Positions 22,546 to 47,973 of a DNA stretch of 64,000 nt are shown here, in pieces (the stretch's first letter is position 1; every line of letters starts with the position of its first letter). A program made the position numbers and the translations under genes. The stretch lies in NCBI GenBank assembly GCA_036835125.1, contig DAITMO010000001.1, positions 127,508-191,507 of the forward strand. The letters are read 5' to 3'. The notes under the pieces were generated by a model that was given only the letters and a program-made list of their open reading frames with translations, made no database searches and had not been told where the DNA came from. The stretch is from Patescibacteria group bacterium. Lineage in GTDB: Bacteria; Patescibacteriota; Microgenomatia; UBA8517.

Positions 22546-23130
22546 CTAGTCAATTTTATCTATTGGAAGCCAGTCATTAATCAAATCAAGGTTTTTAGCA
22601 TTAAAAACAAAATAATATCCTCCACCTTTTCCTAACTCATATCCAGATTTTGGAATATTCATTTTTTTGATATACCAATTAAGTAGAACTCCAACTCCGC
22701 CATGACTTGCTATAAAAATATTCTTGTTAGGATTTTGTCTTATGATGTTTTCAATGGTTGTAACAATTCTATTTTGTACATCAGTAGCTTTCTCCCAACC
22801 CCGAACACTTTCATCTGGATACTCAAAAAACTCTTTAACAACCTTCCAAAATTCATTCTGACCCAAATACCCAGTAGAAGATCTATCAATTTCTCCAAGC
22901 TCTTCAATTGTCTGTGGTTTTATTTGTAAATTGTCTGAAACAATATTAGCTAAATCGATTGCTTTTTGTTCATTAGAAGAAAATATTTCCTGAATATTTT
23001 CAATCCATGGTTGTCTTAACATCTTTTTTGCTCTGTCAAACCCAAGTGCTGATAAGTGCCACTTTGGGACAGGAATATCAGCGTCTTGTTGTACTTCAGG
23101 GTGAGTAACAAAATAAATACTATTTGACAT
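22546..23130 (-). CDS. histidine phosphatase (phosphoglycerate mutase) family protein
   Basis: The internal start MSNSIYFVTHPEVQ at 23130 avoids a 214-nt overlap with the upstream gene. FIASHGGV is the C-terminal His motif. The track ORF extends to 23334. Confidence 0.55.
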   Translation of the reverse strand: MSNSIYFVTHPEVQQDADIPVPKWHLSALGFDRAKKMLRQPWIENIQEIFSSNEQKAIDLANIVSDNLQIKPQTIEELGEIDRSSTGYLGQNEFWKVVKEFFEYPDESVRGWEKATDVQNRIVTTIENIIRQNPNKNIFIASHGGVGVLLNWYIKKMNIPKSGYELGKGGGYYFVFNAKNLDLINDWLPIDKID

Positions 23131-23974
23131 ATTTTGAAAACTTGAGCTTAGTATAGCATCCAGGATAGGAAACTTCGAAGCCTCCAAAAGATTGTTTGAA
23201 ATGAGTAAACCCAAGCCAATCTTTATTTGGGAACCTGGGATCAAATACGCCTTCGAAATCAAAAATCTTAAAACCATTCTTTTTAGCCCATAGTATGCCT
23301 TGATAGAGGAGAGAGTATTGGGAGAGTAGGGCACGTCCTTCTTTATTTGTAAATGCTTGCCAATAGTAAGTGATATAGTTTGATCTTTCGTGTGAAGAAG
23401 TCGTGAAAATCACTCCACCTATAATTCTGCCAGAAATATTGTGCGACGCAAGGAATAGAGACTTGCTTTGTGGAAAACTTTTCTTAAGTTTAATTAATTG
23501 TTCAGCTGACGGCACATATCGTGAGATTTTTACTGATTTTTTCCACCCCTTTCGGAACTTTTTGATTTCATCGGGAGTTGAGTATTCGACGATTTTAACC
23601 CCTCCCCCCTTTCGAATCGCGTATCTTGCATCTTTTTTAAAATGTTTGATTATCTCCTCTCGACTCTTGGTCAGGTCAATTTGCAGAGTTTTGCTTGGCA
23701 AATATGTGTTTTTTGCATGTTTAAAACCAATGGAGGCTAAGTATTTGGCATCCAACTCGTTCTTTGGTTCAATAATAAATTGAAATACCCCATATTTACG
23801 GCATAATTTCTTGATTGTATCAATTCTGATTTCTTCTGGTCTTTGCACTTTCAGAATTGATCCAAAGAGTGGAACCTTTTTAATGAAGTAGTTTATCTCA
23901 GCAATTCTTTCAACTGTCCAGCCAATACTTTTAAGATATTTTGCGTAAGATTCACTTTGTCTTATATCAATCAT
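23120..23974 (-). CDS. FemAB-family peptidoglycan peptide-bridge aminoacyltransferase
   Basis: 284 aa. KDARYAIRKGGGVKIVEY matches the FemAB TRYxIRKAxKxGV motif. It is paralogous to the adjacent gene. Confidence 0.6.
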   Translation of the reverse strand: MIDIRQSESYAKYLKSIGWTVERIAEINYFIKKVPLFGSILKVQRPEEIRIDTIKKLCRKYGVFQFIIEPKNELDAKYLASIGFKHAKNTYLPSKTLQIDLTKSREEIIKHFKKDARYAIRKGGGVKIVEYSTPDEIKKFRKGWKKSVKISRYVPSAEQLIKLKKSFPQSKSLFLASHNISGRIIGGVIFTTSSHERSNYITYYWQAFTNKEGRALLSQYSLLYQGILWAKKNGFKIFDFEGVFDPRFPNKDWLGFTHFKQSFGGFEVSYPGCYTKLKFSKYVK

Positions 23975-23975
23975 T

Positions 23976-24920
23976 TCAAAATCTATTTTTGGAGAGTTTT
24001 ACGGCAATTGGGTTTTTAAGTATTTTCCAACGAATACTTTCTACAATTCTATAAATGAGGTAAACAGGTTTATTTACTACCAGATCCCAAGTTCCCAAAA
24101 ACTCAATGACTTTTGGATTATAACCTTCTTTAAATTTAGTAAATCCTTTCCCTTCCTCTCTCCCCCAAAGGTCAAATGTTGTTAATTTCAATTTTTTTCC
24201 AAGTTTGATGGCCTCCCACATCATGAGATTATTTGCCATTACTTCTTTATGTGCTTCAGTGGAAGCCCCATATGGATAATATAAAAAGTCTTTCCATGTA
24301 AAAAGAATCCATGTAGTAATAATTTTTCCTTTATATGTAGCCGTAAGAAGATGGGCAATCCCTGCCTCCTTAAGCGTATTCCACATAAGCTTGTGATACT
24401 TTTCTGTGTGAGCATAGAAGCCCTGCCTTTGAGTAGTTTCGCGGGTTAATTCTAGATACTTTTTAAAAGCTTTGTCTGAATTATCCTCTATCACTTTTAC
24501 TCCTTTCCTCTCAGCAAGCCTGATGTTGTAGCGGGTTTTACTGGTGAAACTTTTTAAGAGATCCTCCTCCGACTTTGTTAAATCTATCCAAAAGGTAGTT
24601 GGTGTAAAAAACCTTTTGCCAGGAACTGCCCCAGAAGATTCCATAAGGCTAATTAGTTTTTCATCCTTTTGACAGTTTGGCTCGAGTTTTACAAAAATAA
24701 TGTTATTTTTCTTTGCAATTTCTTTAAGCCCATCAAGCATTTTGGTAGTTGGGGTTGGTCCCTTTTCAAAGATTGCTAGTTTATAATGAATACCTGGAAT
24801 CTTGTGAATCGTGAGAATTCCCCAGGCAGTTTCTAAAACTTCATTTCCCCAGGCTTTTCGGAAACTTTCCCAATAAGTTGTTTGCAGAGGGTGGGTGGCA
24901 ATATCGTTAATTTTATTCAT
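23976..24920 (-). CDS. FemAB-family peptidoglycan peptide-bridge aminoacyltransferase
   Basis: 314 aa. Signatures: TTYWESFRKAWGNE, TSKTRYNIRLAERKGVKV, LLTATYKGKIIT. Confidence 0.65.
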   Translation of the reverse strand: MNKINDIATHPLQTTYWESFRKAWGNEVLETAWGILTIHKIPGIHYKLAIFEKGPTPTTKMLDGLKEIAKKNNIIFVKLEPNCQKDEKLISLMESSGAVPGKRFFTPTTFWIDLTKSEEDLLKSFTSKTRYNIRLAERKGVKVIEDNSDKAFKKYLELTRETTQRQGFYAHTEKYHKLMWNTLKEAGIAHLLTATYKGKIITTWILFTWKDFLYYPYGASTEAHKEVMANNLMMWEAIKLGKKLKLTTFDLWGREEGKGFTKFKEGYNPKVIEFLGTWDLVVNKPVYLIYRIVESIRWKILKNPIAVKLSKNRF

Positions 24921-26847
24921 TGTCTAAATATTTATTAATTATATCGTCAAATGTTCCTTTGATGTCGTCAATGTCTGTGGAAACGTCAGACATTATATCT
25001 TTTACTCCTCCCAAAACTCCACCAACACTATCTAGTAAATTTTCAGGTATATCCATAATAAATCTACTTGGAGGGTTACTTATTCTCTCTCCAAAATAAA
25101 GTCGGGAATTGGCATAAATTAGATATAGCTGATTCATTGCACGAGTTATTCCAACATATGCAAGGCGACGTTCTTCTTCCATCTGGGAACTATCCATAAG
25201 ACTTCTGCTATGAGGGAAAAGCCCTTCTTCCATTCCAACTATAAAAACAATTGGAAACTCCAATCCCTTTGCAGCATGTAGCGTCATTAGAGTTACTGAA
25301 TTCTTTTCCTGAAGATTCCCTGACACGTGTTTACTGGAGTCCTGAGAGGTTTCAACCAATGTTACATTTTCCAAAAACTCGATAACATTTGGAAACTCTG
25401 TTGCAACACTTCTTAGTTCCTTTAAGTTCTCAAGTCTGGCAATGTTTTCCTCTGTTTCTTTTTGGAAAAGAGCAAGATAGTCTGTTTTTTGAATAACAGC
25501 ATCAAGAATATCTAAGGTTGTTAGTTCAGAGAAGTCTGGATTTTCCACTCTAAAAGTTTCAAGTTTTTCAAACCGTCTAATCCCAATTTTTTCAATTCTT
25601 TTTTTTGATACTTTGTCTTTTGGATTTGTTAAGTATCTGATGAACGCCAGAACATCTTTAATTTCTTTTCTGTCATAGAACTTAACTCCCCCAACAAGCA
25701 TGTATGGAATTCCACCATGAAGAAAGGCCTCTTCTAAAACACGGGACTGGGCATTTGTTCTATAAAGAATAGCAATGTCTTTGTAATTCAGTTTATCTTT
25801 TGAATATTTAACCAAAGTCTTAATTTCATCAACTACAAAATCTGCTTCATCAAAACCATTTTTAGCAGAATAGAGTTTAATCTTGTTCCCATTTTCTTTT
25901 TCTGTCCAAAGTTTTAATACGGGGTGGCTTGTGTTTTTAGAGATTACCAAATTTGCCGCACTAAGGATGTTTCCTGTCGATCTGTAGTTTTGTTCAAGAT
26001 TAATTATTTTTATGTTTGGATAATCCCTCATTAGATAATTGATGTTTCGGTAGTCAGCCCCGCGCCATGAGTAAATTGATTGGGAAGCGTCCCCTACAGC
26101 TGTAATATTTTTTCCTTTTCCAACCAAAAGTCTGGTTAGAGCATACTGGATTTTATTTGTATCTTGCCACTCATCTACAAAGATATGAGTTAACCTTTTG
26201 TTCCACTTTTCTAAAACTTCGGGGACTTCTTTAAAAAGAACAACAGTCTTGATAAGAAGGTCATCAAAGTCGAGTGCCCCTGCCTCTTTTAATCTTTTCT
26301 CATACTCAACATAAACTTTAGCAGCCATTTCCTGCCACTCACTTCTAACAAAGTTTACGTATTCGGCGGGGCTTAACATCATGTTTTTTGCTTCACTTAT
26401 CCCATTCAAAATTGAGTTGGGGTTAAATTGATCAGTTGAAATATTTAGCTCTTCCATAATCTCTTTAACAGTTTCTTTTTGGTCAGAGTCATCATAGATA
26501 ACAAAATTTTTGGGGATACCTATATACTCTCCATCAATCCTTAAGACCTTTGCACAAAATGAATGAAAAGTGGAAGCCATAATTTGAAGTTTGGAGTCAA
26601 GGAGCTTTAGGATTCTTTCTTTCATTTCGGAAGCAGCTTTGTTTGTGAATGTTAAAAGAAGTGCGTTCTCAGGTTTTATTAAGCCTTTCTCTATAAAATA
26701 GGCAACGCGGTGGGTCAAAACTTTTGTCTTTCCGCTGCCGGCCCCTGCTAATACCAAAAGAGGACCTTTCGTATAAGTGACTGCCTCTTTTTGTTCTTTG
26801 TTTAAACCAGTTATACTTATCTCAGACATGTCTGACCATTCTAACAT
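24913..26847 (-). CDS. pcrA: ATP-dependent DNA helicase PcrA/UvrD
   Basis: Walker A LLVLAGAGSGKT, HIFVDEWQDTN, LMTLHAAKGLEFPIVF, VGITRAMNQLYL. An alternative start, MSEISI, at 26829 is plausible. Confidence 0.88.
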   Translation of the reverse strand: MLEWSDMSEISITGLNKEQKEAVTYTKGPLLVLAGAGSGKTKVLTHRVAYFIEKGLIKPENALLLTFTNKAASEMKERILKLLDSKLQIMASTFHSFCAKVLRIDGEYIGIPKNFVIYDDSDQKETVKEIMEELNISTDQFNPNSILNGISEAKNMMLSPAEYVNFVRSEWQEMAAKVYVEYEKRLKEAGALDFDDLLIKTVVLFKEVPEVLEKWNKRLTHIFVDEWQDTNKIQYALTRLLVGKGKNITAVGDASQSIYSWRGADYRNINYLMRDYPNIKIINLEQNYRSTGNILSAANLVISKNTSHPVLKLWTEKENGNKIKLYSAKNGFDEADFVVDEIKTLVKYSKDKLNYKDIAILYRTNAQSRVLEEAFLHGGIPYMLVGGVKFYDRKEIKDVLAFIRYLTNPKDKVSKKRIEKIGIRRFEKLETFRVENPDFSELTTLDILDAVIQKTDYLALFQKETEENIARLENLKELRSVATEFPNVIEFLENVTLVETSQDSSKHVSGNLQEKNSVTLMTLHAAKGLEFPIVFIVGMEEGLFPHSRSLMDSSQMEEERRLAYVGITRAMNQLYLIYANSRLYFGERISNPPSRFIMDIPENLLDSVGGVLGGVKDIMSDVSTDIDDIKGTFDDIINKYLDNE

Positions 26848-27904
26848 TCCAAAGGTAGAAGAAGTACCTCCAAAAAAGAAAAAAAATAATGTTGAAAAGA
26901 TAATTTTTCTAGTAATTTTATCTATTCTTCTTCTGTTAACATTAAGTATTGGTGCATTTTTATTTAGATATCCTGAAATCTCAAAGGCAACTTACAACTT
27001 CATAAAAGCACCAGTTTCTCAAGTTTCCTCAAACAATAACAAAATAAACATTCTTCTTATGGGTAAATCTGGGGAGAATCATGATGGAGCAGATTTGACA
27101 GATACAATGATGCTCGTCTCAATTCCCTTAAAAGATGGAGAAATAAAAACAGTGTCAATTCCAAGAGATGTTTGGGTACCAGAGTTAATGGCAAAAATTA
27201 ATTCTGCATATTATTGGGGTAAATATGGAAGCGCATATTTTTCTCTTCAAGACACAGGGGGAGGAATTTCTTTTGCAAAAAGAATTGTAGGCAAAATTAT
27301 TGGACAGCCTATTCAATATGGTGTCGTAATTGATTTCTCAGCGTTCAAAGATATTGTAGATGCGGTAGGAGGAATCAGTGTTGATGTTGAGCATCCTTTT
27401 GTAGATAACTTCTATCCAATAGAAGGTAGGGAAAATGATCTTTGTGGTGGTGACAAAAGTTTTTCCTGTCGTTATGAAACTGTGATCTTTGATTCAGGAG
27501 TCCAAACAATGGATGGAGCAACGGCTCTAAAGTTTGTTAGGTCTCGTCATGCAGAAGGAGATGAAGGTACAGATATTGCAAGAGAATCCAGACAACAGAA
27601 AGTAATTGCGGCAATCAAAGACAAAATTGTTGAACCAAAAACTTACCTATCCACTAAAAGAATTTCGGCACTTTTGACAATAGCAAACAAATATATAGAA
27701 ACTGACATTAATCTTCCAACTGTTGGAATAATTGTCAGAAAAGGATTGGAGAATATGAATAATATTTCTCAGAAAAGATTTCCTGAAAACTTGGTTGTTG
27801 TTCCAAAAACCAACCCAATATATGACAACCTATATGTTTTTATTCCAAAAGCAGGGAATGGGAATTGGGAAGAAATTCAGAAGTGGTTTACCGAAAACTT
27901 TTAA
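26828..27904 (+). CDS. LytR-CpsA-Psr (LCP) family cell-envelope polymer transferase
   Basis: TM anchor followed by the LCP core (ILLMGKSGENHDGADLTDTMMLVSI, VSIPRDVWV, ALKFVRSRH). The start MSDHSN at 26828 is used. The track start at 26777 would overlap pcrA. Confidence 0.75.
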   Translation: MSDHSNIPKVEEVPPKKKKNNVEKIIFLVILSILLLLTLSIGAFLFRYPEISKATYNFIKAPVSQVSSNNNKINILLMGKSGENHDGADLTDTMMLVSIPLKDGEIKTVSIPRDVWVPELMAKINSAYYWGKYGSAYFSLQDTGGGISFAKRIVGKIIGQPIQYGVVIDFSAFKDIVDAVGGISVDVEHPFVDNFYPIEGRENDLCGGDKSFSCRYETVIFDSGVQTMDGATALKFVRSRHAEGDEGTDIARESRQQKVIAAIKDKIVEPKTYLSTKRISALLTIANKYIETDINLPTVGIIVRKGLENMNNISQKRFPENLVVVPKTNPIYDNLYVFIPKAGNGNWEEIQKWFTENF

Positions 27905-29154
27905 AAACTTACCCATCCAAACTTGTTGATCCAAAGCACTCCCCAAAGATTGACCATTATTGATAAGAAGAGTAAAAACCAATGGTACCACCTAAGTCCA
28001 GTTTTGGTAGCTCCCTTGATCGTTAAGAACAATAGAAAAGGATAAAAATCCACAGCATATCTATAGCCAAATTGGGAGAACCCTGTTGAACCATACGAAA
28101 AGTTTATTAGTGCAATCAACAAGATTACAACCCACAATTGCTTAACAATTTTTTCTTTTATGTTTGCACAAAAAGCAAAAACAAAGGCTGGAGTTGTAAT
28201 CCAAATTGACATTCCGGCCCACGAAGGAAAAATATAAGGTACATGGTTTGTAAATATAGGTAAACCAAGTAGAAATATTTTTAGATGTTTTGGAATATAA
28301 GAAAAACTAAACTGACCATATTTGAACCACGGTTCATCAAGAATACCAGGAATTAGAGTATATCCGGTTTCCCATGGTCTTCCGAAGCGGAAATAATTAT
28401 AAAGACTATAAAGAATTACAAAAAATGATAAAGCAATCATTATTTTTAGAACACCTTTTTTATCGAATTTTGGTTTTAATAAATATGTAAACAAAATAAG
28501 ACTTGGGAGAAGTTGTAATCTTGAAAGTAAAGCGGCAGACAGTAAAAATCCAATTACAAGTGGTCGTTTTTTATCAATATACTCGAGTAACATAGCTGCA
28601 ATGAAGAAGGTGGCGGTAATTTGACCTAAATACCAAACAGATCCAGTTGAAGATAAAAACCAAATTATGTTTCCAAAAGCAGTTAGTAAACCAGTCCAAA
28701 TTGTAATTTTTTTATTTTTGCTAACTTTCCAAGAAATTAACATCATAAGAACAGTTATTCCAGCACCAACAATGTGAGCCATATATTGCTGTTCAAAATT
28801 TGAGCCAAAGAAAAATCTAAATGGGGCAATAATAACTGCCGGCATTGGTGGATTGACAAATGTGAACTTATTATTTCTAATGGTTATTAATTCACTTAGC
28901 CAGGAAGGATTTTCTTCTAAATATATTTTTCCATGGAGAAATGAATCCGAAAGTCGAGTAAAATAGTCGTACGGAGTTTTTCCTCCTGAGGTAAGTAGAT
29001 AAACAATGAAGACAAAAATAAAAGAAAAAGCAAGAAATTTCTTCATACCTAATATTGTATATGTTTTAATATTTGGGTTCTTGACTAGATTATTTCTATC
29101 TTTTTTTGGAACTCTACATTTGGACCAAGGAACTTTCGTTGCATGGAGTAACAA
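27901..29154 (-). CDS. polytopic membrane protein, GT-C-like glycosyltransferase candidate
   Basis: At least 10 TM segments. The start may be the internal MKKFLAF at 29046. It is divergent from, and overlapping, the next gene's predicted start. Confidence 0.4.
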   Translation of the reverse strand: MLLHATKVPWSKCRVPKKDRNNLVKNPNIKTYTILGMKKFLAFSFIFVFIVYLLTSGGKTPYDYFTRLSDSFLHGKIYLEENPSWLSELITIRNNKFTFVNPPMPAVIIAPFRFFFGSNFEQQYMAHIVGAGITVLMMLISWKVSKNKKITIWTGLLTAFGNIIWFLSSTGSVWYLGQITATFFIAAMLLEYIDKKRPLVIGFLLSAALLSRLQLLPSLILFTYLLKPKFDKKGVLKIMIALSFFVILYSLYNYFRFGRPWETGYTLIPGILDEPWFKYGQFSFSYIPKHLKIFLLGLPIFTNHVPYIFPSWAGMSIWITTPAFVFAFCANIKEKIVKQLWVVILLIALINFSYGSTGFSQFGYRYAVDFYPFLLFLTIKGATKTGLRWYHWFLLFLSIMVNLWGVLWINKFGWVSF

Positions 29155-31480
29155 TCTGGTGGTAGATGGATTTAAGAATTTTTACAATGGATGGAGTGAT
29201 TATTTACCAGGATATTTATATATATTGTGGTTTTTGGGGAAAATAAATCTTTTGGGTTTTATTCCACAAGTGGTGCTTTATAAACTACCCGCAATATTTT
29301 CAGATCTTTTAACTGGATTTTTGATCTATAAAATTATTAAGAAAAATCTTTCATTAAAATTAAAAAAAATATCTAATAAAAATGAATGTTTGGGACTTCT
29401 CGGAGCACTTATTTATATTTTTAACCCAGCAATTTTGGCAAATTCTTCACTTTGGGGGCAAGTTGATTCATTGACTGCTTTATCAGTAATTTCATCAATA
29501 TATTTGTTTGATAAAAAATATATTCTTTCTGCAATAGCTTTAGCAATCGGAACTTTAATAAAACCACAAGCTGCATTTGTTTTGCCAATAATCTTATATT
29601 TGTTTGTAGTAAATAAAAGAAAACTTAGTGAACTATTTTTCTATTGTTATACTGGTTTATTAGTATTCATTTTAGGTTTTATTCCTTTTTCAAATGGTAA
29701 CTTTTTTGAATTTATTATTAATAGACTTTCTTTGTCTGCTAATCAATATCAATATACTTCAGTAAACGCTTTTAACTTCTGGGGGCTTTTTGGGATGTGG
29801 AAACCAGACAATGTGGTATTTCAGTTTGGAAGTTATTTACTTGTAATTTTATTGTTTACTGTTTTACTAATTAAATTTAGAAAGAAAAAAATATCTCCTT
29901 ATACACTTGCTGTATTTATTTTCACTGCAAGCTTTATGCTCTTTACCAGAATGCATGAAAGGCATCTTTTGCCAGCGTTTGCTCCGATGGCAATTATCTT
30001 GATTGAAAACTCACTTTTTATTTTTCCATACTTAGGACTTTCAATAATATATATTTTGAATTTGCTTTATTCCTACAAGTGGATTACAGAAAATTTTATT
30101 AAAGTATATCCTGATATATTTACAAAATTTCTAGAAATATTTGGCATATTTTTCTTGGTTTTTGTCTTTTTAATAATATTAAAAAACTTTCAAATTACTT
30201 GGAAGAAATTAATATCATTTGCAAAAAATCTTGTTAATAAAATAAGTACATCAAAAACAGAAATGTCTCCAATGCCTCAAATTAAATTGTCCAATAAAAA
30301 ATCAAAAATTATTCTTCTTTTGATTCTAATATTTGCTTTTACTTCTCGAGTTTATAAATTAGGATCTCCAACAACAATGTATTTTGATGAGGTTTATCAC
30401 GCCTTCACTGCAAAAGTGATGATGGGGGAAGATAGAGCAAAAGCTTGGGAATGGTGGAACACTCCACCTGAAGGATTTGCGTATGAGTGGACTCACCCGC
30501 CTTTGGCAAAACTTGGAATGGTTATGGGAATGAGTATTTTTGGACAAAATTCATTTGGTTGGAGGATTCCAGGGGTATTACTAGGGGTAGGATCGGTATT
30601 TTTGATATATCTTTTGGCAAAAGAAATTTTTAAAGATGAAACCATAGGACTAATCTCTGCTGGGGTATTTTCACTTGATGGTTTGTCTTTGATTTTAAGC
30701 AGAATTGGTATGAATGATAGCTATCTATTATTCTTTTCACTTCTTTCAATATATTTGTTTTTAAAACAAAAAGATGCATTTTCTGCGTTATCTTTTGGTC
30801 TTGCACTTTCTTCTAAATGGTCTGCCTTGTGGGTTGTTCCAGTTCTTTTTATTCTTTGGCTGAAGCGCAGGAATAAATTTACTCCAGTTACGTTTTTGTC
30901 ATTTTTATTTTTACCAATTGCTATATATTTTTTAACCTACTTACCGATGTTTATAACAGGGCACACTATAGAGACTTGGTGGGGAATGCAAAAACAAATG
31001 TGGTGGTATCATACAAGACTTGATGCAACTCATTCTTATTCATCTCCTGCCTGGACCTGGCCATTTTTGGTTAGACCAGTATATCTTTATACAAGTGATG
31101 AAATAGGAGGATTTGTTTCAAGAATATATTTAATGGGTAATCCATTTGTTTTTTTCTCTGGATTTGCTTCAGTTTTAATGTGTGCAATATATTCAATAAT
31201 AGAGAGAAACAAAAATCTCGGGATAATTGTTTTTTCGTACCTTGTTTTCTTTGTCCCCTGGATTGCATCTCCAAGAGTTATGTTTTTATATCATTATCTT
31301 CCCTCAGTTCCATTCTTATCAATCGCAATAGCGTATGTTTTACGTAGAAATAGACGAATACTTCTTTTGTATATTGCTATTGCGGTTATATTGTTTATAT
31401 ATTTTTATCCTCATTGGACAGATATACAGATCCCTCTTTGGTTGGACAAAAGTTACTATTGGATAACAAGCTGGAGATAG
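29006..31480 (+). CDS. two-module GT-C membrane glycosyltransferase; C-terminal module is a PMT (protein O-mannosyltransferase, GT39)-like domain
   Basis: 824 aa with two TM-rich halves. The second half begins with the PMT loop-1 DE motif (MYFDEVYHAFTAKVMM ... YEWTHPPLAKL). The start at 29006 overlaps the divergent upstream gene, so the true start may be downstream. Confidence 0.6.
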   Translation: MKTKIKEKARNFFIPNIVYVLIFGFLTRLFLSFFGTLHLDQGTFVAWSNNLVVDGFKNFYNGWSDYLPGYLYILWFLGKINLLGFIPQVVLYKLPAIFSDLLTGFLIYKIIKKNLSLKLKKISNKNECLGLLGALIYIFNPAILANSSLWGQVDSLTALSVISSIYLFDKKYILSAIALAIGTLIKPQAAFVLPIILYLFVVNKRKLSELFFYCYTGLLVFILGFIPFSNGNFFEFIINRLSLSANQYQYTSVNAFNFWGLFGMWKPDNVVFQFGSYLLVILLFTVLLIKFRKKKISPYTLAVFIFTASFMLFTRMHERHLLPAFAPMAIILIENSLFIFPYLGLSIIYILNLLYSYKWITENFIKVYPDIFTKFLEIFGIFFLVFVFLIILKNFQITWKKLISFAKNLVNKISTSKTEMSPMPQIKLSNKKSKIILLLILIFAFTSRVYKLGSPTTMYFDEVYHAFTAKVMMGEDRAKAWEWWNTPPEGFAYEWTHPPLAKLGMVMGMSIFGQNSFGWRIPGVLLGVGSVFLIYLLAKEIFKDETIGLISAGVFSLDGLSLILSRIGMNDSYLLFFSLLSIYLFLKQKDAFSALSFGLALSSKWSALWVVPVLFILWLKRRNKFTPVTFLSFLFLPIAIYFLTYLPMFITGHTIETWWGMQKQMWWYHTRLDATHSYSSPAWTWPFLVRPVYLYTSDEIGGFVSRIYLMGNPFVFFSGFASVLMCAIYSIIERNKNLGIIVFSYLVFFVPWIASPRVMFLYHYLPSVPFLSIAIAYVLRRNRRILLLYIAIAVILFIYFYPHWTDIQIPLWLDKSYYWITSWR

Positions 31481-31482: not shown

Positions 31483-31770
31483 TCAGGCTGGTCCGAAACG
31501 GAAGTTTCCCTTCAGAATTAAGAATACCAATATTCCTAAAATAAAAATTGTGACAAGGAAGTAGGTTACAGACCATTTTCCAGATTTTGGAAAAAATTTA
31601 TCAAAAGGATAATATGAAAAATTTTCAGATTTCAACTTACCTAATGTATAAAAAGTCAGCTTGTATCCTAAATAAATTACTAGAATAAGAACTAGTACCA
31701 ATATAATTATAGAAAAATTGGAATTAACAAAATTGGTAATGTGTTTTGATAACTCAATTAGTTTATTCAC
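31483..31770 (-). CDS. small membrane protein
   Basis: 95 aa with two TM segments. It is the last gene of the minus-strand surface-protein operon. Confidence 0.35.
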   Translation of the reverse strand: MNKLIELSKHITNFVNSNFSIIILVLVLILVIYLGYKLTFYTLGKLKSENFSYYPFDKFFPKSGKWSVTYFLVTIFILGILVFLILKGNFRFGPA

Positions 31771-31777: not shown

Positions 31778-32305
31778 TTAGATTACTAATAAAATTGATC
31801 CGAAGAGAATGATTATTCCCAAACCAATTCCTGTAAGAGTTGGCCAACTAATCCCCGACTGAGGTAAAGCTGCAGCTGTTGCTGTTGGAGTGGCAGTTCC
31901 ACATGTGCAATCTGTATCCTCCGGACAATTTGGATTTCTGCAGTAGCCATTGTAACAGTAATATCCTGATCCACAATTAGAATTGCTTCCACAAGTACCA
32001 CCACAAGAATTTGGTTCTCCGGAGGAAGTTGGAGTTGGTGTTGGTGACGGAGTTGAAGAACCAGTTGCTGTTGGAGTAGCAGAAGGTGTGCTGGTTGGAG
32101 ATGGTGTAATAGTTGAAATTGTAAAAGACAGAGAACAACCAACTAGAGGAGTTAGAGCTTTAGGATTACTACTTGGTGCATTTGGTGCAACAGTAGTCTC
32201 TCTTAATTGATAAAGTCTGAAAGCTGTAAAAATAGCAACACCTGCCAATATAACTGTAGCAATTATTATTAAAGTTGTTCCAACTTTTCCAATAGGTTTT
32301 TTCAT
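31778..32305 (-). CDS. secreted/anchored Thr-Pro-rich protein with Cys-rich module and C-terminal LPQSG + hydrophobic tail
   Basis: N-terminal signal anchor and a TPSPTSTPSATPTATGSSTPSPTPTPTS linker. Cys module: GEPNSCGGTCGSNSNCGSGYYCYNGYCRNPNCPEDTDCTCG. It ends AAALPQSGISWPTLTGIGLGIIILFGSILLVI. Confidence 0.6.
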   Translation of the reverse strand: MKKPIGKVGTTLIIIATVILAGVAIFTAFRLYQLRETTVAPNAPSSNPKALTPLVGCSLSFTISTITPSPTSTPSATPTATGSSTPSPTPTPTSSGEPNSCGGTCGSNSNCGSGYYCYNGYCRNPNCPEDTDCTCGTATPTATAAALPQSGISWPTLTGIGLGIIILFGSILLVI

Positions 32306-32312
32306 ATTATTT

Positions 32313-33476
32313 TTAAAACCACCCTAATGTTGGATGGTGGACTTGACCTGAAATATTAAATGTAGTTGTATCACTTGGAATGGTATAGCTCTGACAGAAA
32401 TCATTTGATTCCGCCCTTTGCAATGTGGTCTCTTCATTCAGTATTCCGTTTATAGTAAATCTTGCTTTATCAAAAATTCCAGACGAAGAATAACCAGAAA
32501 CACACAAATAAATGACGTCCCCTTCTTTCAAGAGCGATCTGTCGCTTGCACTAATTAGCTCCCAACTTGAAGAATAGGTAGATATAGATGAACAATATGT
32601 TGATATAGGGGGACTTGTTGGTGGTGAAGTTGGGGGACTTGTTGGTGGTGAGGTGGGTAAAGTTGGGTCACAAAGCTCATTTGTACATCTAGTTCCATTT
32701 CCTTGATAAGTACACGCATTGGGTGTGAGACAGTAGTTTCCGGGTGCTGGATTCCTTCCAGAAGGACATATACAATTAGCGTTTCCTATGATGGGTTGTC
32801 CATATTCGGCCTTGACGTTGTAGCATTTATAAATCTTTTCGGCACCATAACCGCCACAAAAACTTCCACCTATATCATGATCATAAACACAATCCATATC
32901 GCCTAGTTGACATGTAGGTTTTGAAGCACACACACCTCCGTTACACAATCCACTACAACATTCTGCATTACTTGAGCATGATTTACTATTTGTTTTACAG
33001 CAAATACCACCGTTACAAGTACCATAACAACATTCACTTGAGTTGCTGCAGGCACCACCAATTAATACATTACAATTTCCAGCAACACAAAGTCCATCAC
33101 TACATACTCCTGAAGTACATTCTGAATTTTTTCCACATCTGCTTCCATTGGAATATGCTGCCTCTTGTTTAAACAGTTGTTTTTGCCCAATCAAATATGT
33201 ACCTGCACCCAACCCTCCCACTAATACTAAAATTCCCAAGATTGTTGCAATAATTCTTTTTGTTCCAAATTTTTTCTTTGGATTTGAAGCAATGTTGTTT
33301 GTATTAGGAACAGGAGAAGCTGTTCCAGAATCTTTGACTGGTTTATTCTCTATCTGTTCTGTTTTTTCCACATTCTGAAAATCTGCAGGCATTGGTGGCA
33401 GATCTGTTTGAGAAGCAAATGATATTCCCGGATTAGGATTATTTTGTTGTTGGTTATTTGAGTCTTGGTTGGGCAT
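32313..33476 (-). CDS. membrane-anchored Cys-rich repeat protein with (TSPP)n linker
   Basis: Q/N/P-rich N-terminus, then a TM anchor. Three knottin-like Cys repeats follow (CGKNSECTSGVCSDGLCV; CSNSSECCYGTCNGGICC; CSSNAECCSGLCNGGVC). Then TSPPTSPPTSPPTSPP and a C-terminal domain. Confidence 0.55.
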   Translation of the reverse strand: MPNQDSNNQQQNNPNPGISFASQTDLPPMPADFQNVEKTEQIENKPVKDSGTASPVPNTNNIASNPKKKFGTKRIIATILGILVLVGGLGAGTYLIGQKQLFKQEAAYSNGSRCGKNSECTSGVCSDGLCVAGNCNVLIGGACSNSSECCYGTCNGGICCKTNSKSCSSNAECCSGLCNGGVCASKPTCQLGDMDCVYDHDIGGSFCGGYGAEKIYKCYNVKAEYGQPIIGNANCICPSGRNPAPGNYCLTPNACTYQGNGTRCTNELCDPTLPTSPPTSPPTSPPTSPPISTYCSSISTYSSSWELISASDRSLLKEGDVIYLCVSGYSSSGIFDKARFTINGILNEETTLQRAESNDFCQSYTIPSDTTTFNISGQVHHPTLGWF

Positions 33477-33533
33477 GTTAATAAATATATCTATTCACTC
33501 CATTGTAGAATATGTGTCTTATTTGGTCAAAGT

Positions 33534-34331
33534 TTATATCGCCAAAAGGAGCAGAGACCCAATTATCACAATTGTTCCAATTCCCATTCCAAGGAAACTG
33601 GGCCAATTAACTCCTGACTGTGGTAATGCAGCCTGCGTTGGCGTTGGTGTTGGAGATGAACAATTACAATCTTGATTTGCAGGACAACTTGGGTTTCTGC
33701 AGTAGCCATTATAACAATAAAAATCTGTTCCACAATTAGAATTGCTTCCACAAGTACCACCACAAGAATTTGGTTCCCCTGATGATATTGGAGTTGGTGT
33801 GGCTGTTGTAGTCGCAGTTGGAGTTGATGATGGAGTGGCGGTTGGGGTAGGCTCTAGTGTTGGAGTTGGTGTTGGTTCTATAGTTGGTGTGGGTGTCGAA
33901 ACAATTTCAACCGCTGCTGGGGCATGATAACAACATATTGGCAATACAGCATCTCCCGCACTACACGTTACTCCTGACTCCTCTCCGGCTCCCATCTGGT
34001 CATCTCTTGCTGGTGTAGTCTGGCATTTTGGTGTACAGTCACAAGCTTCCTCTTCTAGTATTTGAGGTTGTTGTGTGAGAATAATACCAGCACCAATACC
34101 TCCCACAATAACAATAACTCCCAAAATAGCAGCGATGATTTTCTTCTTTTTCCCAAATTTTCCTCGTGGTTTAGCAATGATTGTGTTTGGAGAAGCAACT
34201 ACACTACTTACATTTCCACCATTTTGTAATTCTGTTGGCATTGGTGGTAAGTCTGTTTGAGAAGCAAAAGACCCTGCAGTAAGATCACTCTGTGATGTTT
34301 GTTGTTGATTTGGATTATCTTGATTGGGCAT
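33534..34331 (-). CDS. secreted/anchored Thr-Pro-rich protein with Cys-rich module and C-terminal LPQSG + hydrophobic tail (paralog of 31778..32305)
   Basis: It shares the N-terminus (MPNQD..NQQQ..SFASQTDLPPMP plus TM) with 32313..33476. It shares the Cys module (GEPNSCGGTCGSNSNCG..YCYNGYCRNP.CP) and the LPQSG tail with 31778..32305. Confidence 0.6.
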   Translation of the reverse strand: MPNQDNPNQQQTSQSDLTAGSFASQTDLPPMPTELQNGGNVSSVVASPNTIIAKPRGKFGKKKKIIAAILGVIVIVGGIGAGIILTQQPQILEEEACDCTPKCQTTPARDDQMGAGEESGVTCSAGDAVLPICCYHAPAAVEIVSTPTPTIEPTPTPTLEPTPTATPSSTPTATTTATPTPISSGEPNSCGGTCGSNSNCGTDFYCYNGYCRNPSCPANQDCNCSSPTPTPTQAALPQSGVNWPSFLGMGIGTIVIIGSLLLLAI

Positions 34332-34333
34332 AT

Positions 34334-35698
34334 TTAATTTTCAGCTTCTCTCCAGACGTAAAAACCAAAGGATACTACCCCCAATCCCACTATTAACATT
34401 AACACAGTTGGAAGCAAACTCCCAGATTTTGGAAGTGAGGATGGTGTAGCTATGAGAGTTGGAGAAGGTTTAACTGTTGGCGTTGAAGTTGCCTTTGGTG
34501 TTGCTGTCGGACTACCTGTTTTTACAGGAGTCGGAGTTGGTGTTGCTGTCTGTTTTGGTGTTGCTGTTGGAGTCGATTCAAAAGCAGGCAATTCTCCAGC
34601 TTGTACTACAAAGTTTCTGGTTATTGTGCGTGTTATTCCTGAAAGATCTATCCATGAAATAGTAATAGTGTGTTCACCTGGACTCAAATTTGAAGGAGGT
34701 GACCAACTCCAAGAACCAGTTGAAGCGACTTTTGTACTGCCTGTAATCTCCTCATCTGAGTGAACGGTAATGGTTATGTTTGTACCTTTTGGTCCATCTC
34801 CAAAAAATTCAGGAGTATCGCTAGTAATTACTTCTCCCTCAGTTATGCTCTCAAGAGTTACTTTTGAGGAGTCTGAACTAACAGAATCTGAATCAACATT
34901 AAATTTTGATTCAGAAGTGGCACTTGTTGGAAGTTCTAAATTTGCATTGGGGTTGTTCCCATCAGCAATTGGTTCAAGACTTCTAAAATCTTGATCTTTT
35001 CCAATGATTAGAGCTGGTATTGGATTTGCAGACCTTGGATAAACCTTAGCTGTTGCAATTTCTCCCGTTTCAGAAATAGCAGAGATTTCAAGAAGAGTTT
35101 TGTTTAAGTCAATTTGGGCATATGATTTCAAGTCTGTAGTGCGCACTGAACCAAGTTGTATTACAAATACCCCACTGTCAGATGTAATTGACGATATTGT
35201 ATAGCCATTAACCATAATATGAATAAGTGCTCTTTTTGATGGTTCACCCGAAGCTGTCAATATTGATCCTGATATGGGGATAGAAGGTTGACTTGTATTT
35301 ATTTTTTTACCAGTTGAAAATTGCCAAGTTGTGCCGTTATTATCAAACATTTTTCCTTCAGAGTTAATTTTGAAATAGTAGATAGTCTCCGGCTCTAATC
35401 CGGTAAGAGTAATACTATGAGTGTTATAGCCTTCCTCGTCTTCACTTTCATTTGCGACTGTTCCGACGTTTTGAGAAGTACCATATGAAACAAAACCTGT
35501 TGTTGCGTCTTCGGTAAACCAAGATACAGTAGCGGAAGAATCAGAAATTGAACCAATACGAATATTATTAGGTGTTATTGTAGGACTGGCGCCAATTCTA
35601 AATACTTGATTGTTTCTTAATAGAATAACTCCAGCAAAAACACCAAAGAAAAGAACAATGATCCCTAGTATTGTTGGTATTTTATTTCTTTTAATCAT
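34334..35698 (-). CDS. cell-surface protein with FN3-like and Ig-like domains, TP-rich stalk and LPKSG sorting-signal-like C-terminus
   Basis: Signal anchor, then an FN3/PAP-N-like domain (SATVSWFTEDATTGFVSYGTS...ETIYYFKINS). An Ig-like domain follows (GTNITITVHSDEEITGSTKV...HTITISW). Then a TPTATPKQTATPTPTP stalk. It ends LPKSGSLLPTVLMLIVGLGVVSFGFYVWREAEN, i.e. motif, TM, then a charged tail. Confidence 0.6.
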   Translation of the reverse strand: MIKRNKIPTILGIIVLFFGVFAGVILLRNNQVFRIGASPTITPNNIRIGSISDSSATVSWFTEDATTGFVSYGTSQNVGTVANESEDEEGYNTHSITLTGLEPETIYYFKINSEGKMFDNNGTTWQFSTGKKINTSQPSIPISGSILTASGEPSKRALIHIMVNGYTISSITSDSGVFVIQLGSVRTTDLKSYAQIDLNKTLLEISAISETGEIATAKVYPRSANPIPALIIGKDQDFRSLEPIADGNNPNANLELPTSATSESKFNVDSDSVSSDSSKVTLESITEGEVITSDTPEFFGDGPKGTNITITVHSDEEITGSTKVASTGSWSWSPPSNLSPGEHTITISWIDLSGITRTITRNFVVQAGELPAFESTPTATPKQTATPTPTPVKTGSPTATPKATSTPTVKPSPTLIATPSSLPKSGSLLPTVLMLIVGLGVVSFGFYVWREAEN

Positions 35699-36066
35699 AT
35701 TTGTGCACTAGGTGAGGCACTTTGAGTGGCCTCTACATTTATTGGTTCAGGTGTAATTGTTGGAATTGGAACAACCATAGTATTTGATTCTATATTAAGT
35801 GGCGGAATTTCAGAATCAGGAATAAAAATTGCAGACTCAATCAATTGAATAGATTCCAAATTAATATTTGGATCTATTGGTTTTGTAATGTTTGTAGGCA
35901 CAATTGTAGGTGGTTTAATTGTGAATGTTCTGTAAACAGACAAACTTACCCACAATAACGTAGTTAGAAGGGTGAGTATAAGTATGGAAATTGGTTTAGG
36001 GATTTTTCCCTTATTTTGATTATCTGTTTTCATATAAGTATGGGATTCTTCCCGAAATGACAGCAA
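35695..36066 (-). CDS. membrane-anchored Pro-rich protein (possible PilP-like pilus assembly component)
   Basis: 123 aa with one TM and a Pro/Ile-rich periplasmic tail. It lies immediately downstream of pilO-like. The true start may be MKTDNQ at 36033. Confidence 0.3.
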   Translation of the reverse strand: MLSFREESHTYMKTDNQNKGKIPKPISILILTLLTTLLWVSLSVYRTFTIKPPTIVPTNITKPIDPNINLESIQLIESAIFIPDSEIPPLNIESNTMVVPIPTITPEPINVEATQSASPSAQI

Positions 36067-36679
36067 TTAGTGTTTTCCCTTCGTTGGTTGTAGATGAGCT
36101 GATGGATACGTTATCAATTATCGATATTACTCTCATTCTACCCATATTTGTAATAAAATTGTTTATATTATTGTAAAATCCCCTAACATTTAATACATAA
36201 CTTACTCCCTTTGTTTCATTAGGTAAATCTATTAGTACATCTTCGTTAATGGTGGATTTTAATTGACCTTTTACAACAATTTCTTTCATTGATATTCCGA
36301 CCAAATCAACTTCATTTCTAACAGCCAATCCTTCTACCTGTTTTGCAAATAAATCTGGATTTGGTGAAGATGGAATAGCAGTATTAATTATCTCTAATAT
36401 AGGTTGGTATTGATTAACAATATTGTTAGCTTTTTTTAAATCATTTAACTTCTTATCAAGAATACTTATTACTTTCTTTTCTTCATTGATTTGTTGAACC
36501 AGGCTGATTATGGTTAAAGCTGTTGGTTTAATAGCAAACACTAAAAAGACCAATACAGCAATTATCGAAAGTACGATTTCCAAAAATGCCCTCAAGTCTG
36601 CCCTTTTTTTGTATAGCTCAGTAACATTTAAAAAAACCTCTTTATATCTTAGATAAGCTGATTTCCAATTAGATGCCAT
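36020..36679 (-). CDS. type IV pilus assembly protein PilO-like
   Basis: 219 aa. Single N-terminal TM after a short cytoplasmic segment, then a coiled coil and a ferredoxin-like C-terminal domain. It sits directly after pilN-like. Confidence 0.45.
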   Translation of the reverse strand: MASNWKSAYLRYKEVFLNVTELYKKRADLRAFLEIVLSIIAVLVFLVFAIKPTALTIISLVQQINEEKKVISILDKKLNDLKKANNIVNQYQPILEIINTAIPSSPNPDLFAKQVEGLAVRNEVDLVGISMKEIVVKGQLKSTINEDVLIDLPNETKGVSYVLNVRGFYNNINNFITNMGRMRVISIIDNVSISSSTTNEGKTLIAVISGRIPYLYENR

Positions 36680-36680
36680 G

Positions 36681-37211
36681 TTAGTATTCTATGTCTATAA
36701 CAAAATTTGTTCCTCCAAAATTACTTTCAGATGAACTCAGTTGTTTTAATTCAACTTTTTTGAAAAGATCACCTTCAAGATTATTAATATAACCACTAAT
36801 ATCAAAATCTGATAAGGAATAACCTCTGATATTAATAGATTTGTTTTCAATTACTATTCTGGATAACGTTATTGTTGTGGGTATGCTTCCAGTGATTTTG
36901 TCTAATATCTGAGTAGTATTTTGAATTTTTGCTATTTTTCCATAGGTATCGACTTTTGTTTGCATACTTCGAAATTGTTTTTCTAACTCTCCTTGAGCCA
37001 AAATTTGTCCGGTTTTGACTTTTATTATTTTGTTCAAATTTGAATTCTGAGTGTCAAGCCAAAATCTTGAGAGAAATGCAGCCATTACAACTATTTCTGT
37101 CACAATGACGATGATACGAAATGTACCCGTTGCCCATTTTAAAACACGACCAATGGTGGAAGAATTAAATTCTTCTTGAGGAAGTAAATTTATTGACTTA
37201 TTTTTGGGCAT
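36681..37211 (-). CDS. type IV pilus assembly protein PilN-like
   Basis: N-terminal INLLP motif (MPKNKSINLLPQEEF), which is the PilM-binding signature of PilN. It is followed by a single TM and a periplasmic domain. Confidence 0.55.
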   Translation of the reverse strand: MPKNKSINLLPQEEFNSSTIGRVLKWATGTFRIIVIVTEIVVMAAFLSRFWLDTQNSNLNKIIKVKTGQILAQGELEKQFRSMQTKVDTYGKIAKIQNTTQILDKITGSIPTTITLSRIVIENKSINIRGYSLSDFDISGYINNLEGDLFKKVELKQLSSSESNFGGTNFVIDIEY

Positions 37212-47061: not shown

Positions 47062-47973
47062 ATGACAACTAATAAGTTGATCACGCAAGGTCAGGTAAGG
47101 CAGATCACAGGTTTTGGGGCTGACGTAATTGAGAAGGTTCTCGATGATCTTGGGCTTGATAAAAAAGGCGCCCAGGCTGTCATCGGCCGTGGTGGTGAGT
47201 TTGGAAGTTTAATTATGCCTTCCATACTCTCTGCGCTACAGAGCCTTTCAGTTTCTGAACGGTTCAAAGATGAAGAAGTTGATTCCAGATATGGATATCT
47301 CTCCGGTTATAAACCGAAGGGTTTGAATGAACAAATGAACCAACTTCGAATCCTGTTTCCAGGCATAGGATTTTGCAATCAAGATCTGTTCACACAGATC
47401 GAGAGAGATGACGTCAAATTGCCAAAACATGCCGAAGGTTGGTTTGCCATCCCCAACTGGATGAGAAACCCGCAGATTTTTGGTACGACCTACAGTGATG
47501 CCCTTCTCAAAGTGCTTAATATGATCAAAAAAGCCAGAAACGGCAAGTTTTACAACTACCGTGAAGGTCAGATAAACGAGAAGAACATTCACCAGTCGGA
47601 CCGAACCAGGGAGTTTTGGAAAAAACTCTCAAATGATCAGGGAAATCCTGATATTTTGATTGTTCCTGCACAGTTTGGCATCCGTCACCGTGGTCGATCT
47701 GTTCGACGCGCTTGCGAAATTTTTGTCGGGAACGAATTCGGTCTTGGCGCATTTGCTGTTGGTGTTATGATCCTGACGCACCCTGAACGTCTTCAGAATT
47801 TTGACGATCTTTGGATCGACTGCGCGGGTGATGAATTTGCAGCAAATGCCGATGGCGACTGTTCGAGGGCTCCATATTTCGGGTTCGGCGATAGTGATAT
47901 CAAGGTTGGCACGGGATGGGTTGACGATGCGGATTCGGATTATGGTTCGGCATCGGGGTTCCTTCCGCAGTAA
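47062..47973 (+). CDS. DGR target (variable) protein; C-terminal variable region
   Basis: 303-aa ORF with noticeably higher GC than its surroundings. Its last about 41 codons (47847-47970) are duplicated downstream as the template repeat, with differences at TR adenines. Confidence 0.75.
   Translation: MTTNKLITQGQVRQITGFGADVIEKVLDDLGLDKKGAQAVIGRGGEFGSLIMPSILSALQSLSVSERFKDEEVDSRYGYLSGYKPKGLNEQMNQLRILFPGIGFCNQDLFTQIERDDVKLPKHAEGWFAIPNWMRNPQIFGTTYSDALLKVLNMIKKARNGKFYNYREGQINEKNIHQSDRTREFWKKLSNDQGNPDILIVPAQFGIRHRGRSVRRACEIFVGNEFGLGAFAVGVMILTHPERLQNFDDLWIDCAGDEFAANADGDCSRAPYFGFGDSDIKVGTGWVDDADSDYGSASGFLPQ
47847..47970 (+). repeat. DGR variable repeat (VR)
   Basis: 124-bp near-copy of 48358-48481. 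There are 12 mismatches, and 10 of them are A in TR to G/C in VR. Template Asn codons AAC/AAT correspond to GGC/GAT in the VR. Confidence 0.85.

Follow-up and report, generated by a model that had tools for sequence, protein, structure and literature searches.

Bacteria of the Candidate Phyla Radiation (CPR), or Patescibacteria, are believed to spend their lives attached to other microorganisms, and type IV pili (T4P) are the best-supported organelle for both this attachment and DNA uptake. In the characterized T4P systems of Pseudomonas aeruginosa, Myxococcus xanthus and Thermus thermophilus, the proteins PilM, PilN and PilO, in some cases with PilP, make up the alignment subcomplex, and the INLLP peptide of PilN binds cytoplasmic PilM. 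Here we analysed a stretch of 64,000 nucleotides (nt) from contig DAITMO010000001.1 of a Patescibacteria group bacterium (the window), which carries, on the minus strand between positions 37211 and 31483, eight co-directional open reading frames (ORFs). These encode PilN, PilO, a small bitopic protein (X), a protein with fibronectin type III and immunoglobulin-like domains (FN3/Ig), three Cys-rich proteins of 265, 387 and 175 amino acids (aa) and a 95-aa membrane protein. We interpret the locus as a conserved operon of the ultra-small Candidatus (Ca.) Woesebacteria that joins the T4P PilN–PilO pair to lineage-specific, membrane-anchored envelope proteins, with a distinctive C-terminal tail serving as an uncleaved anchor, and we give this reading a probability of roughly 0.5.

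The operon resembles described T4P alignment-subcomplex operons in its first two genes. As in those systems, PilN combines an INLLP motif, a transmembrane (TM) helix and a PilN domain, PilO has the expected architecture, and the pilN and pilO genes are adjacent and translationally coupled. The remainder differs, because rpsT takes the place of the upstream pilM, pilP and pilQ are absent, and T4P operons have no described counterpart of X, of an FN3/Ig protein anchored at both ends or of the Cys-rich stalk proteins.

The assignment of the first gene is secured by family matching, since PilN scores 38.8 bits against Pfam family PF05137 (gathering cut-off 22.8), and the same family is precomputed on an identical protein. 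Its N terminus reads MPKNKSINLLPQEE and continues into a hydrophobic stretch, so that both the INLLP-type peptide and the TM segment are present. Among the 36 PilN orthologues, 35 keep an INL[LI]P or VNLLP motif. PilO itself scores only 18.9 bits against PF04350, below the gathering cut-off of 22, but many of its orthologues do carry this family. A profile built from 23 PilO orthologues matches M. xanthus PilO (3jc8_O) in the PDB with an E value of 1.5e-4. The AlphaFold model of PilO, with a predicted local distance difference test (pLDDT) score of 78.5, consists of a TM helix, a long helix and an alpha/beta domain, and its best Foldseek matches are PilO chains (3jc8_O with an E value of 3e-6, then 2rjz and 5uvr), with T. 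thermophilus PilN ranking lower. PilN and PilO are therefore genuine, as an initial annotation of this DNA had proposed from the INLLP motif of the one and the likeness of the other.

All eight ORFs lie at the coordinates originally given for them, and the description of a co-directional row with minimal gaps, comprising a Pro-rich anchored protein, an FN3/Ig protein, three Cys-rich proteins and a small membrane protein after the pil genes, holds throughout. From PilN to the 95-aa gene, successive spacings are 1 nt, an overlap, a 4-nt overlap, and 2, 57, 7 and 7 nt. A simple consensus scan finds no terminator-like site on the coding strand inside the row, and promoter and terminator scanning stays at background level. 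G+C content in the window is about 0.33–0.36 and rises to 0.38–0.40 across the Thr/Pro-rich genes. Judged by this arrangement, the eight genes form one predicted, translationally coupled operon.

Related operons are widespread in a single lineage. A PilO-profile scan covering one genome per GTDB species yielded 36 loci, most of them carrying the name Ca. Woesebacteria or Microgenomates. Metagenomes scanned with a PilN profile added 80 further loci, and one more locus (L134) was reached through an FN3/Ig relative of 33% identity. The organism of the window itself is present in several metagenomes. In these roughly 120 loci the order is rpsT, PilN, PilO, X (about 110 aa), FN3/Ig protein (about 450 aa), Cys-rich protein, tail-bearing protein and a protein of about 95 aa, with murJ preceding rpsT. 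The row is usually followed by a convergent gene for a PMT glycosyltransferase, which adjoins the operon in nearly all loci, and then by genes for a GT-C-like protein and an LCP protein. PilN is the first gene after rpsT in every locus, each locus has one PilN/PilO pair, and the 95-aa gene ends the operon in at least 15 GTDB loci and in many metagenome loci. The metagenome scan with PilN was aimed at distant lineages with an adjacent pilM, and it returned only close relatives (47–64% identity), all with rpsT upstream. The system is specific to Ca. Woesebacteria/Microgenomatia, in agreement with the lineage specificity that the initial annotation had supposed. Several public metagenome-assembled genomes that carry a Woesebacteria-type cassette (for example, L012, L016–L018 and L024) are titled ‘uncultured Gammaproteobacteria’ or ‘Alphaproteobacteria’ and are probably mislabelled.

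Such constancy could in principle reflect nothing more than inherited synteny, with PilN/PilO and the surface proteins being functionally unrelated neighbours. Indeed, the whole region from dnaK-grpE-hrcA-murJ-rpsT to PMT-LCP, a neighbourhood of 30 kb, is collinear across the class, and for this reason the evidence for coupling rests mainly on gene overlaps and on two unusual loci rather than on adjacency. Within the row, the gaps have medians of 2, −4, −4, 3.5, 4 and 7 nt (15–35 loci), compared with 62 nt between rpsT and pilN, and 4-nt overlaps or single-digit gaps run throughout. Moreover, the row is kept in L047 and L134 despite different flanks or about 30% identity. L047 is the most divergent locus (30% PilO identity), and there the flanks are rearranged but PilN-PilO-X-FN3 and a protein ending in LPLAG plus 24 residues are retained. 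Together with the lack of a terminator-like site noted above, these features make mere inherited synteny very improbable, the least credible of the explanations that we weighed.

The third gene of the row, encoding X, is conserved in 30 loci and typically overlaps both pilO and the FN3/Ig gene by 4 nt. In the window its ORF reaches position 36066 (123 aa), whereas the 112-aa form is the one called in public assemblies. X has no family match in Pfam or NCBIfam. We considered whether it might be PilP and rejected this candidate, given the lack of a family match and a conserved ectodomain of merely about 45 aa.

The FN3/Ig protein is built from domains of familiar types. In the window it carries Pfam matches to Pur_ac_phosph_N/fn3 and Big_13, and across its family Big_13 is found in 33 of 33 members, an FN3-type domain in 30 of 33 and a CarboxypepD_reg-like sandwich in 17 of 33. 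An exhaustive HMMER search recovers 790 relatives at E ≤ 1e-30, giant multi-repeat FN3/Big proteins included. Among the best 150 cluster representatives, 98 are full-length, and 88 of these 98 are free of Cys. The full-length relatives share a motif before the final helix, [LIVTMQ]P-x-[A 26, S 22, T 8, P 4, V 1]-G-xxx-PT, followed by the TM segment, and a few relatives end in ...GALLLAL, as the stalk proteins do. PilN, PilO, X, the FN3/Ig protein and the 95-aa protein are all essentially Cys-free.

The Cys-rich proteins form two main families with a distinctive distribution of Cys. Members of the 387-aa type have a cytoplasmic N terminus of about 90 aa, a TM helix, Cys-rich repeats and a conserved 97-aa C-terminal domain, for which Pfam and PDB profile searches give nothing significant; the window member has no C-terminal TM helix. 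A [LIVM]PP[LM]P (LPPLP-type) motif occurs in 49 of 56 members and, being conserved and cytoplasmic, suggests a cytoplasmic binding partner. The number of ectodomain Cys residues is odd in 53 of 55 members. The C-terminal domain starts with the odd, unpaired Cys, which is conserved in 56 of 57, and its other two Cys probably pair with each other because they are lost together.

Members of the 175-aa type consist of a conserved N-terminal helix followed by RLYQLRQ..VAPNVPSS, a variable middle and the tail. Here also the Cys count is odd, in 48 of 49 members, and it is mostly 1, 9, 17 or 25, that is, 8n + 1. The odd residue is the Cys of a ‘C-SLSFT[IL]’ motif, which is the sole Cys in one-Cys members. 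The middle domains differ among genomes (DUF11/CLIPPER, and precomputed Pfam matches to PF00963, PF13519 and PF07705), as would be expected of a displayed, fast-evolving part. An AlphaFold2 model of the 175-aa protein, which does not inform on function, shows a helix at residues 5–36, a disordered linker, a small Cys module and a helix at residues 154–174 after a disordered LPQSG. Two other interpretations were rejected. A lipobox reading of the C-SLSFT Cys fails because this residue lies about 25 residues past the TM segment and has no conserved L-x-x-C context, and a pilin reading of the conserved N-terminal helices of the surface proteins fails because they lack Gly(−1)/Glu+5 and no frame of the window contains G[FMLIVY][TS][LIV][LIVM]E.

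Because each of the two families has one unpaired, positionally conserved Cys, we predict a single interchain disulfide between the 387-type and 175-type products, with homodimers as the alternative. In locus L045 the 387-type and 175-type genes are duplicated as a pair. The 265-aa protein combines a 387-type N terminus with the tail and has an even number of Cys residues (14); it is the sole such hybrid in the cassette data set, and the region preceding its TM helix begins with MPNQ(D/N), as does that of the 387-aa protein. Its closest architectural relatives (P0094 and P0016) are encoded by lone genes after cysS in other genomes.

The placement of PilN and PilO among these proteins raises the question of whether they still serve a pilus. 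The initial annotation had remarked that pilM and pilins are missing, and this is the case in the window: rpsT lies immediately upstream of PilN with divergent murJ beyond it, no PilM gene adjoins PilN, and a six-frame translation of the 64 kb contains no prepilin motif of the G[FM]TLIE type. One alternative explanation is that the pair has been co-opted as a dedicated non-pilus membrane platform, at which the FN3/Ig protein and a stalk pair joined by a disulfide would be positioned or put together to form a fibril on the surface or an organelle for attachment. This fits the location of the pair, apart from other pilus genes and always amid envelope genes (murJ, PMT, LCP and FemAB). It also fits the conserved and mutually related N-terminal TM segments of the FN3/Ig and Cys-rich proteins, as well as the LPPLP-type motif. 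Furthermore, there is a precedent in the Helicobacter pylori flagellar cage, where PilMNO homologues act away from pilus genes with non-pilus envelope partners (PMC10823254). That case differs in organism, partners and context, and the PilN of the present operon has retained the PilM-binding peptide, as have all but one of its orthologues. PilM/N/O families are enriched in CPR (PMC6744442), and a complete Microgenomates genome has a single T4P locus with PilA, minor pilins and PilD/B/T/C/M in which PilN and PilO are not listed (PMC7143001). A split T4P system, with PilM encoded elsewhere, accommodates this gene distribution. Since, in addition, only one PilN/PilO pair occurs per locus, we regard co-option as a serious rival, though somewhat unlikely, and the locus as most likely a lineage-specific envelope operon that is accessory to T4P.

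The second distinctive element of the operon is the C-terminal tail. In the window the FN3/Ig, 265-aa and 175-aa proteins end in LPKSG-SLLPTVLMLIVGLGVVSFGFYVWREAEN, LPQSG-VNWPSFLGMGIGTIVIIGSLLLLAI and LPQSG-ISWPTLTGIGLGIIILFGSILLVI, respectively. When all six frames of the 64-kb window are scanned for LPx[ST]G or another pentapeptide of the sortase type before a hydrophobic run to a stop codon, exactly these three emerge, in line with the original observation that three surface proteins end in this way, one of them with REAEN. A search with the 265-aa protein gave 193 relatives, and pooling these with the locus proteins gave 121 distinct tail sequences. All 121 homologues end in a module of exactly 29 residues, which places the motif far beyond chance. 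Its consensus is [LI]P-x-[SATV]-G-T-x-W-P-T, followed by a Gly-rich helix that ends at the C terminus exactly 24 residues past the Gly. Position 1 is L in 108 and I in 12 (120 of 121), P2 and G5 are invariant, and position 4 is S in 88 (73%), A in 20 (17%), T in 9 (7%) and V in 4 (3%). The helix carries G at module positions 13, 15, 17 and 23, with G17 invariant, and closes with [SA]-L-L-L-A-[LIF]-COOH. In 120 of 121 sequences the last 24 residues contain neither Lys nor Arg.

The tail is not private to the operon, because it is also carried by lone genes after cysS in other Microgenomates genomes (L051, 10001–10567; L052, 10001–11041), and this indicates a general module of the lineage. These lone proteins have the tail form IPx[ST]G-TDWPT... 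and the N terminus MP..D..SPFEI. A similar motif is seen in the 95-aa protein, whose strictly conserved loop, SYYPFDKFFPKSGKWS, places FPKSG-KW directly before TM2 and echoes the LPxSG-xxW of the tails.

Like an LPXTG sorting signal, the tail has an L-P-x-x-G core before a C-terminal helix and terminates Thr/Pro-rich secreted proteins, and the initial annotation accordingly compared it with a tripartite sortase signal in which Ser replaces Thr. That comparison is not supported in this form. The hydrophobic segment is present (19–24 hydrophobic residues, as in helix 154–174 of the 175-aa model), but the pentapeptides of the window are one LPKSG and two LPQSG rather than LPXTG, and the basic end is missing, as the two LPQSG proteins have no basic residue there and the only one in the FN3/Ig protein is the R that precedes EAEN. 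The residues past the Gly (T-x-W-P-T, GxGxG and GSLLLAL-COOH) are more strongly conserved than position 4, at which even Val is allowed. The LPXTG_anchor model TIGR01167 scores 10.3 bits with the FN3/Ig protein (cut-off 15.9), does not match either LPQSG protein of the window and matches 6 of 35 tail-class proteins even at E ≤ 10. In contrast, it matches 13 of 13 relatives in a control class with LPKTG endings, one of which (P0065) scores 18.1 bits.

The Ser itself is not a distinguishing feature, since natural Firmicute substrates are known that have Ser, as a minor variant, or Ala at position 4 (for example, LPKSG in PrpA; PMC4682149, PMC7137321). What sets the tail apart is the missing basic end, the fixed length and the conserved TxWPT and Gly-rich helix. 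We lean slightly towards viewing it as a sequence-specific membrane anchor or partner-recognition helix that would be retained, sortase-like in its position and LP..G core without being a canonical signal. The conserved N-terminal TM segments of the same proteins likewise argue for retained anchors.

The main alternative reading of the tails, which we judge less likely than the uncleaved anchor, is that they are true sorting signals. A divergent sortase, or another one, would then cut between position 4 and the Gly and link the stalk proteins, and possibly the FN3/Ig protein, to peptidoglycan; with the N-terminal TM helix retained, membrane-to-wall tethers would surround the PilN/PilO platform. 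The near-invariant L/I-P and G and the occurrence of S or A in real substrates are consistent with this. So is the finding that the 8-Cys module of the stalk proteins (C..C..C..C..C..C..C.C) also occurs in 13 relatives ending in APPVLPKTG, a helix and FKKFKLI, a textbook sortase signal. These canonical proteins, with LPKTG, KKFKLI and an adjacent sortase, constitute a separate class that coexists in the lineage. In two cases an LPKTG-type gene immediately precedes the sortase gene in the order radA, LPKTG protein, sortase, rho (L048, 7953–9676; L050, 3107–4505), and one such set shares its 766-kb contig with a cassette (L019/L048). FemAB-family genes are also present in the window.

A candidate enzyme for such cleavage is encoded in this genome. 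No TLxTC motif occurs in the called ORFs of the window, in keeping with the earlier statement that the window has no sortase. That annotation had also treated the absence of a sortase from the whole genome as an argument against its proposal, and one is present. A contig (L137) that is 100% identical to positions 54627–64000 of the window carries a 229-aa sortase gene at 5170–5859, about 2.7 kb beyond the right end of the window at position 64000. The protein has an ITLVTC motif and scores 90.4 bits with Pfam PF04203 and 62.3 bits with TIGR01076 (cut-off 39.35). It is encoded between AlaRS and RuvX, in the order AlaRS, 248-aa protein without a family match, 502-aa Baseplate_J-like protein with a TM segment, sortase and RuvX, and no obvious substrate gene adjoins it. 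It is 34% identical to the LPKTG-linked Woesebacteria sortase, and neither of these two sortases reaches any of the class A–F models. A search with the LPKTG-adjacent Woesebacteria sortase gave 2258 matches, and among the 120 matches listed none lies on the 778,109-bp contig. Two sortase subfamilies coexist in the lineage, and since one of them has no known substrate, the cleaved-signal reading stays viable. Sortase is reported to be nearly ubiquitous in Microgenomates (PMC6744442), and our literature search found no paper on a Microgenomates sortase with LPXTG.

Against cleavage by a sortase stand the tail features described above, namely the lack of Lys/Arg after the helix, the fixed end, the conservation beyond the motif and the failure of TIGR01167. 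In the FN3/Ig family, position 1 may even be T, Q or M, and position 4 may be A, S, T, P or V. Furthermore, no sortase is found within 10 kb of any of the roughly 120 cassettes.

A signal for a different enzyme would be another way to explain the fixed tail length, the conserved and helix-destabilizing GxGxG and the occurrence of the tail in at least two unrelated gene positions (the cassette and the lone gene after cysS). Specifically, a rhomboid-type intramembrane protease or an exosortase/archaeosortase-like enzyme might release or lipid-anchor the proteins. Exosortase- and archaeosortase-type signals (PEP-CTERM, VPDSG-CTERM and PGF-CTERM) place a short motif and a TM helix at the extreme C terminus of unrelated passengers, end in a cluster of Arg/Lys and co-occur with a multi-TM exosortase. 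The tail resembles the VPDSG-CTERM type, whose motif is close to the IPDSG and VPESG variants of the FN3/Ig family. In contrast to those signals, however, the operon tail has no terminal basic cluster, an exosortase was not found, no candidate enzyme is encoded in any flank, and NCBIfam C-terminal sorting-domain (CTERM) models give no match to the window proteins at E ≤ 1–10. Processing of this kind is therefore improbable.

Under the interpretation that we favour, with an uncleaved tail and a pilus function, the operon would work as follows. PilM, the pilus ATPases and the pilins would be encoded elsewhere in the genome, and the PilN and PilO of the operon would provide the platform for alignment. 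This platform may be extended from the membrane into the wall by X and by the FN3/Ig protein with its three Cys-free domains. The stalk pair is predicted to be disulfide-linked and held by its conserved helices, and the neighbouring PMT probably O-glycosylates its Thr/Pro linkers. The stalk protein would then expose its variable middle domain on the cell surface, as an accessory that is adhesin-like or spans the wall.

Several considerations weigh against this picture. No pilus genes besides pilN and pilO are found in the window or in any 10-kb flank, which makes the link to the pilus indirect, and the precedent of the flagellar cage shows that PilMNO homologues can be put to other uses. The collinearity of the entire region makes adjacency weaker evidence than it seems. 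As for the tail, its invariant L/I-P and G and its location after a Thr/Pro stalk suit a cleaved signal. So do the finding that one and the same 8-Cys module can bear either this tail or an LPKTG tail, and the presence of a sortase gene some 30 kb from the operon. Disulfide pairing, glycosylation and topology are all predictions. A more far-reaching possibility unites the rival elements: the tail would be a new sorting signal, and PilN/PilO part of a pilus-like platform for non-pilin clients that extracts or positions two-TM stalk proteins and builds from them a disulfide-joined, glycosylated, envelope-spanning fibre with hypervariable adhesin tips for host attachment, possibly linked to the wall by a new sortase subfamily. 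We consider this combined scheme doubtful.

Two further described systems are comparable in part. Protein O-mannosyltransferase (Pmt) of actinobacteria O-mannosylates Thr/Pro-rich secreted proteins, and here too a GT39-type PMT gene lies beside genes for long Thr/Pro linkers, although it is convergent and not co-transcribed, and glycosylation would be a prediction from this proximity. Pam pili are CPR-specific surface filaments encoded by an operon in Saccharimonadia and Microgenomatia (bioRxiv 10.64898/2026.03.03.709456). PamR has two FnIII domains, a C-terminal TM helix and an N-terminal beta-strand, and the Pam assembly factors are C-terminally TM-anchored, which recalls the proteins described here. 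However, the Pam operon, which adjoins ATP synthase genes, lacks PilN/PilO and encodes donor-strand pilins together with the chaperone-like PamC/D. We rejected membership in the Pam system on the basis of this difference in operon content, which was the level of the comparison.

Taken singly, the parts of the operon (PilN/PilO, FN3/Ig stalks and an LPXTG-like ending) belong to known kinds. Their combination, the tail module and the odd-Cys pairing were not found described in the searchable literature. Because the whole class has this operon in a single copy, always in the same place and with tight coupling, it nominates concrete, testable accessory components. These are the FN3/Ig protein with its three Cys-free domains and the stalk pair, for which a disulfide link is predicted and whose display domain can be exchanged. 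The tail module is missed by current annotation models and could be converted into a hidden Markov model for cataloguing the Microgenomatia surface proteome.

Table 1. Coordinates of the operon genes, their C-terminal tails and the convergent neighbour (window positions).
Feature	Position	Strand	Description and basis
PilN, 176 aa	36681..37211	-	INLLP-type N-terminal motif (PilM-binding type), one TM helix, PilN ectodomain; Pfam
PilO, 219 aa	36020..36679	-	TM helix, long coiled coil, ferredoxin-like ectodomain; profile and Foldseek
X, small bitopic protein, 112 aa from ATG	35695..36033	-	N-terminal TM, conserved ~45-aa juxtamembrane segment, variable Pro/Thr-rich end
FN3/Ig protein, 454 aa, Cys-free	34334..35698	-	N-terminal TM, FN3, middle beta-sandwich, Big_13, Thr/Pro linker, LPKSG, TM helix, WREAEN
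FN3/Ig C-terminal tail	34334..34435	-	LPKSG-SLLPT, TM, WREAEN; six-frame motif scan
265-aa stalk protein, 14 Cys	33534..34331	-	~60-aa cytoplasmic N terminus, TM, Cys-containing region, Thr/Pro linker, 8-Cys module, LPQSG tail
265-aa protein tail	33534..33626	-	LPQSG-VNWPS, Gly-rich TM, no basic residue; motif scan and tail alignment
387-aa Cys-rich protein, 29 Cys	32313..33476	-	~85-aa cytoplasmic N terminus with LPPMP, TM, Cys-rich repeats, (TSPP)n linker, ~97-aa C-terminal beta domain
175-aa stalk protein, 9 Cys (8-Cys module + 1)	31778..32305	-	N-terminal TM, RLYQLR..VAPNAPSS, ‘C-SLSFTI’ Cys, Thr/Pro linker, 8-Cys module, LPQSG tail
175-aa protein tail	31778..31867	-	LPQSG-ISWPT, Gly-rich TM reaching the C terminus; 29-residue tail module
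95-aa two-TM protein	31483..31770	-	Conserved loop SYYPFDKFFPKSGKWS
PMT-family (GT39) protein O-mannosyltransferase, convergent neighbour outside the operon	29159..31480	+	Pfam PMT/PMT_2/PMT_4TMC on identical gene

The region on the far side of the 95-aa gene, at 8197–31480, is unusually dense in envelope-biogenesis genes. It includes genes for a PEGA-domain protein, UbiA, a GT4 protein, a PMT_2-like protein, a GT2 protein, two FemAB-family proteins (23120–24920), an LCP protein (26777–27904) and a GT-C-like protein of 417 aa without a Pfam match (27901–29154), the last followed by the PMT gene at 29159–31480.

On the other side of the operon, at 47062–49860, the window contains a diversity-generating retroelement. 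Its 303-aa target gene (47062–47973) carries at its 3′ end a variable repeat (47847–47971) that is 90% identical to the template repeat (48358–48482), and 11 of the 13 differences fall at adenines of the template repeat. The element is completed by a bAvd-like accessory gene on the minus strand (48500–48868) and a reverse transcriptase gene (48892–49860).

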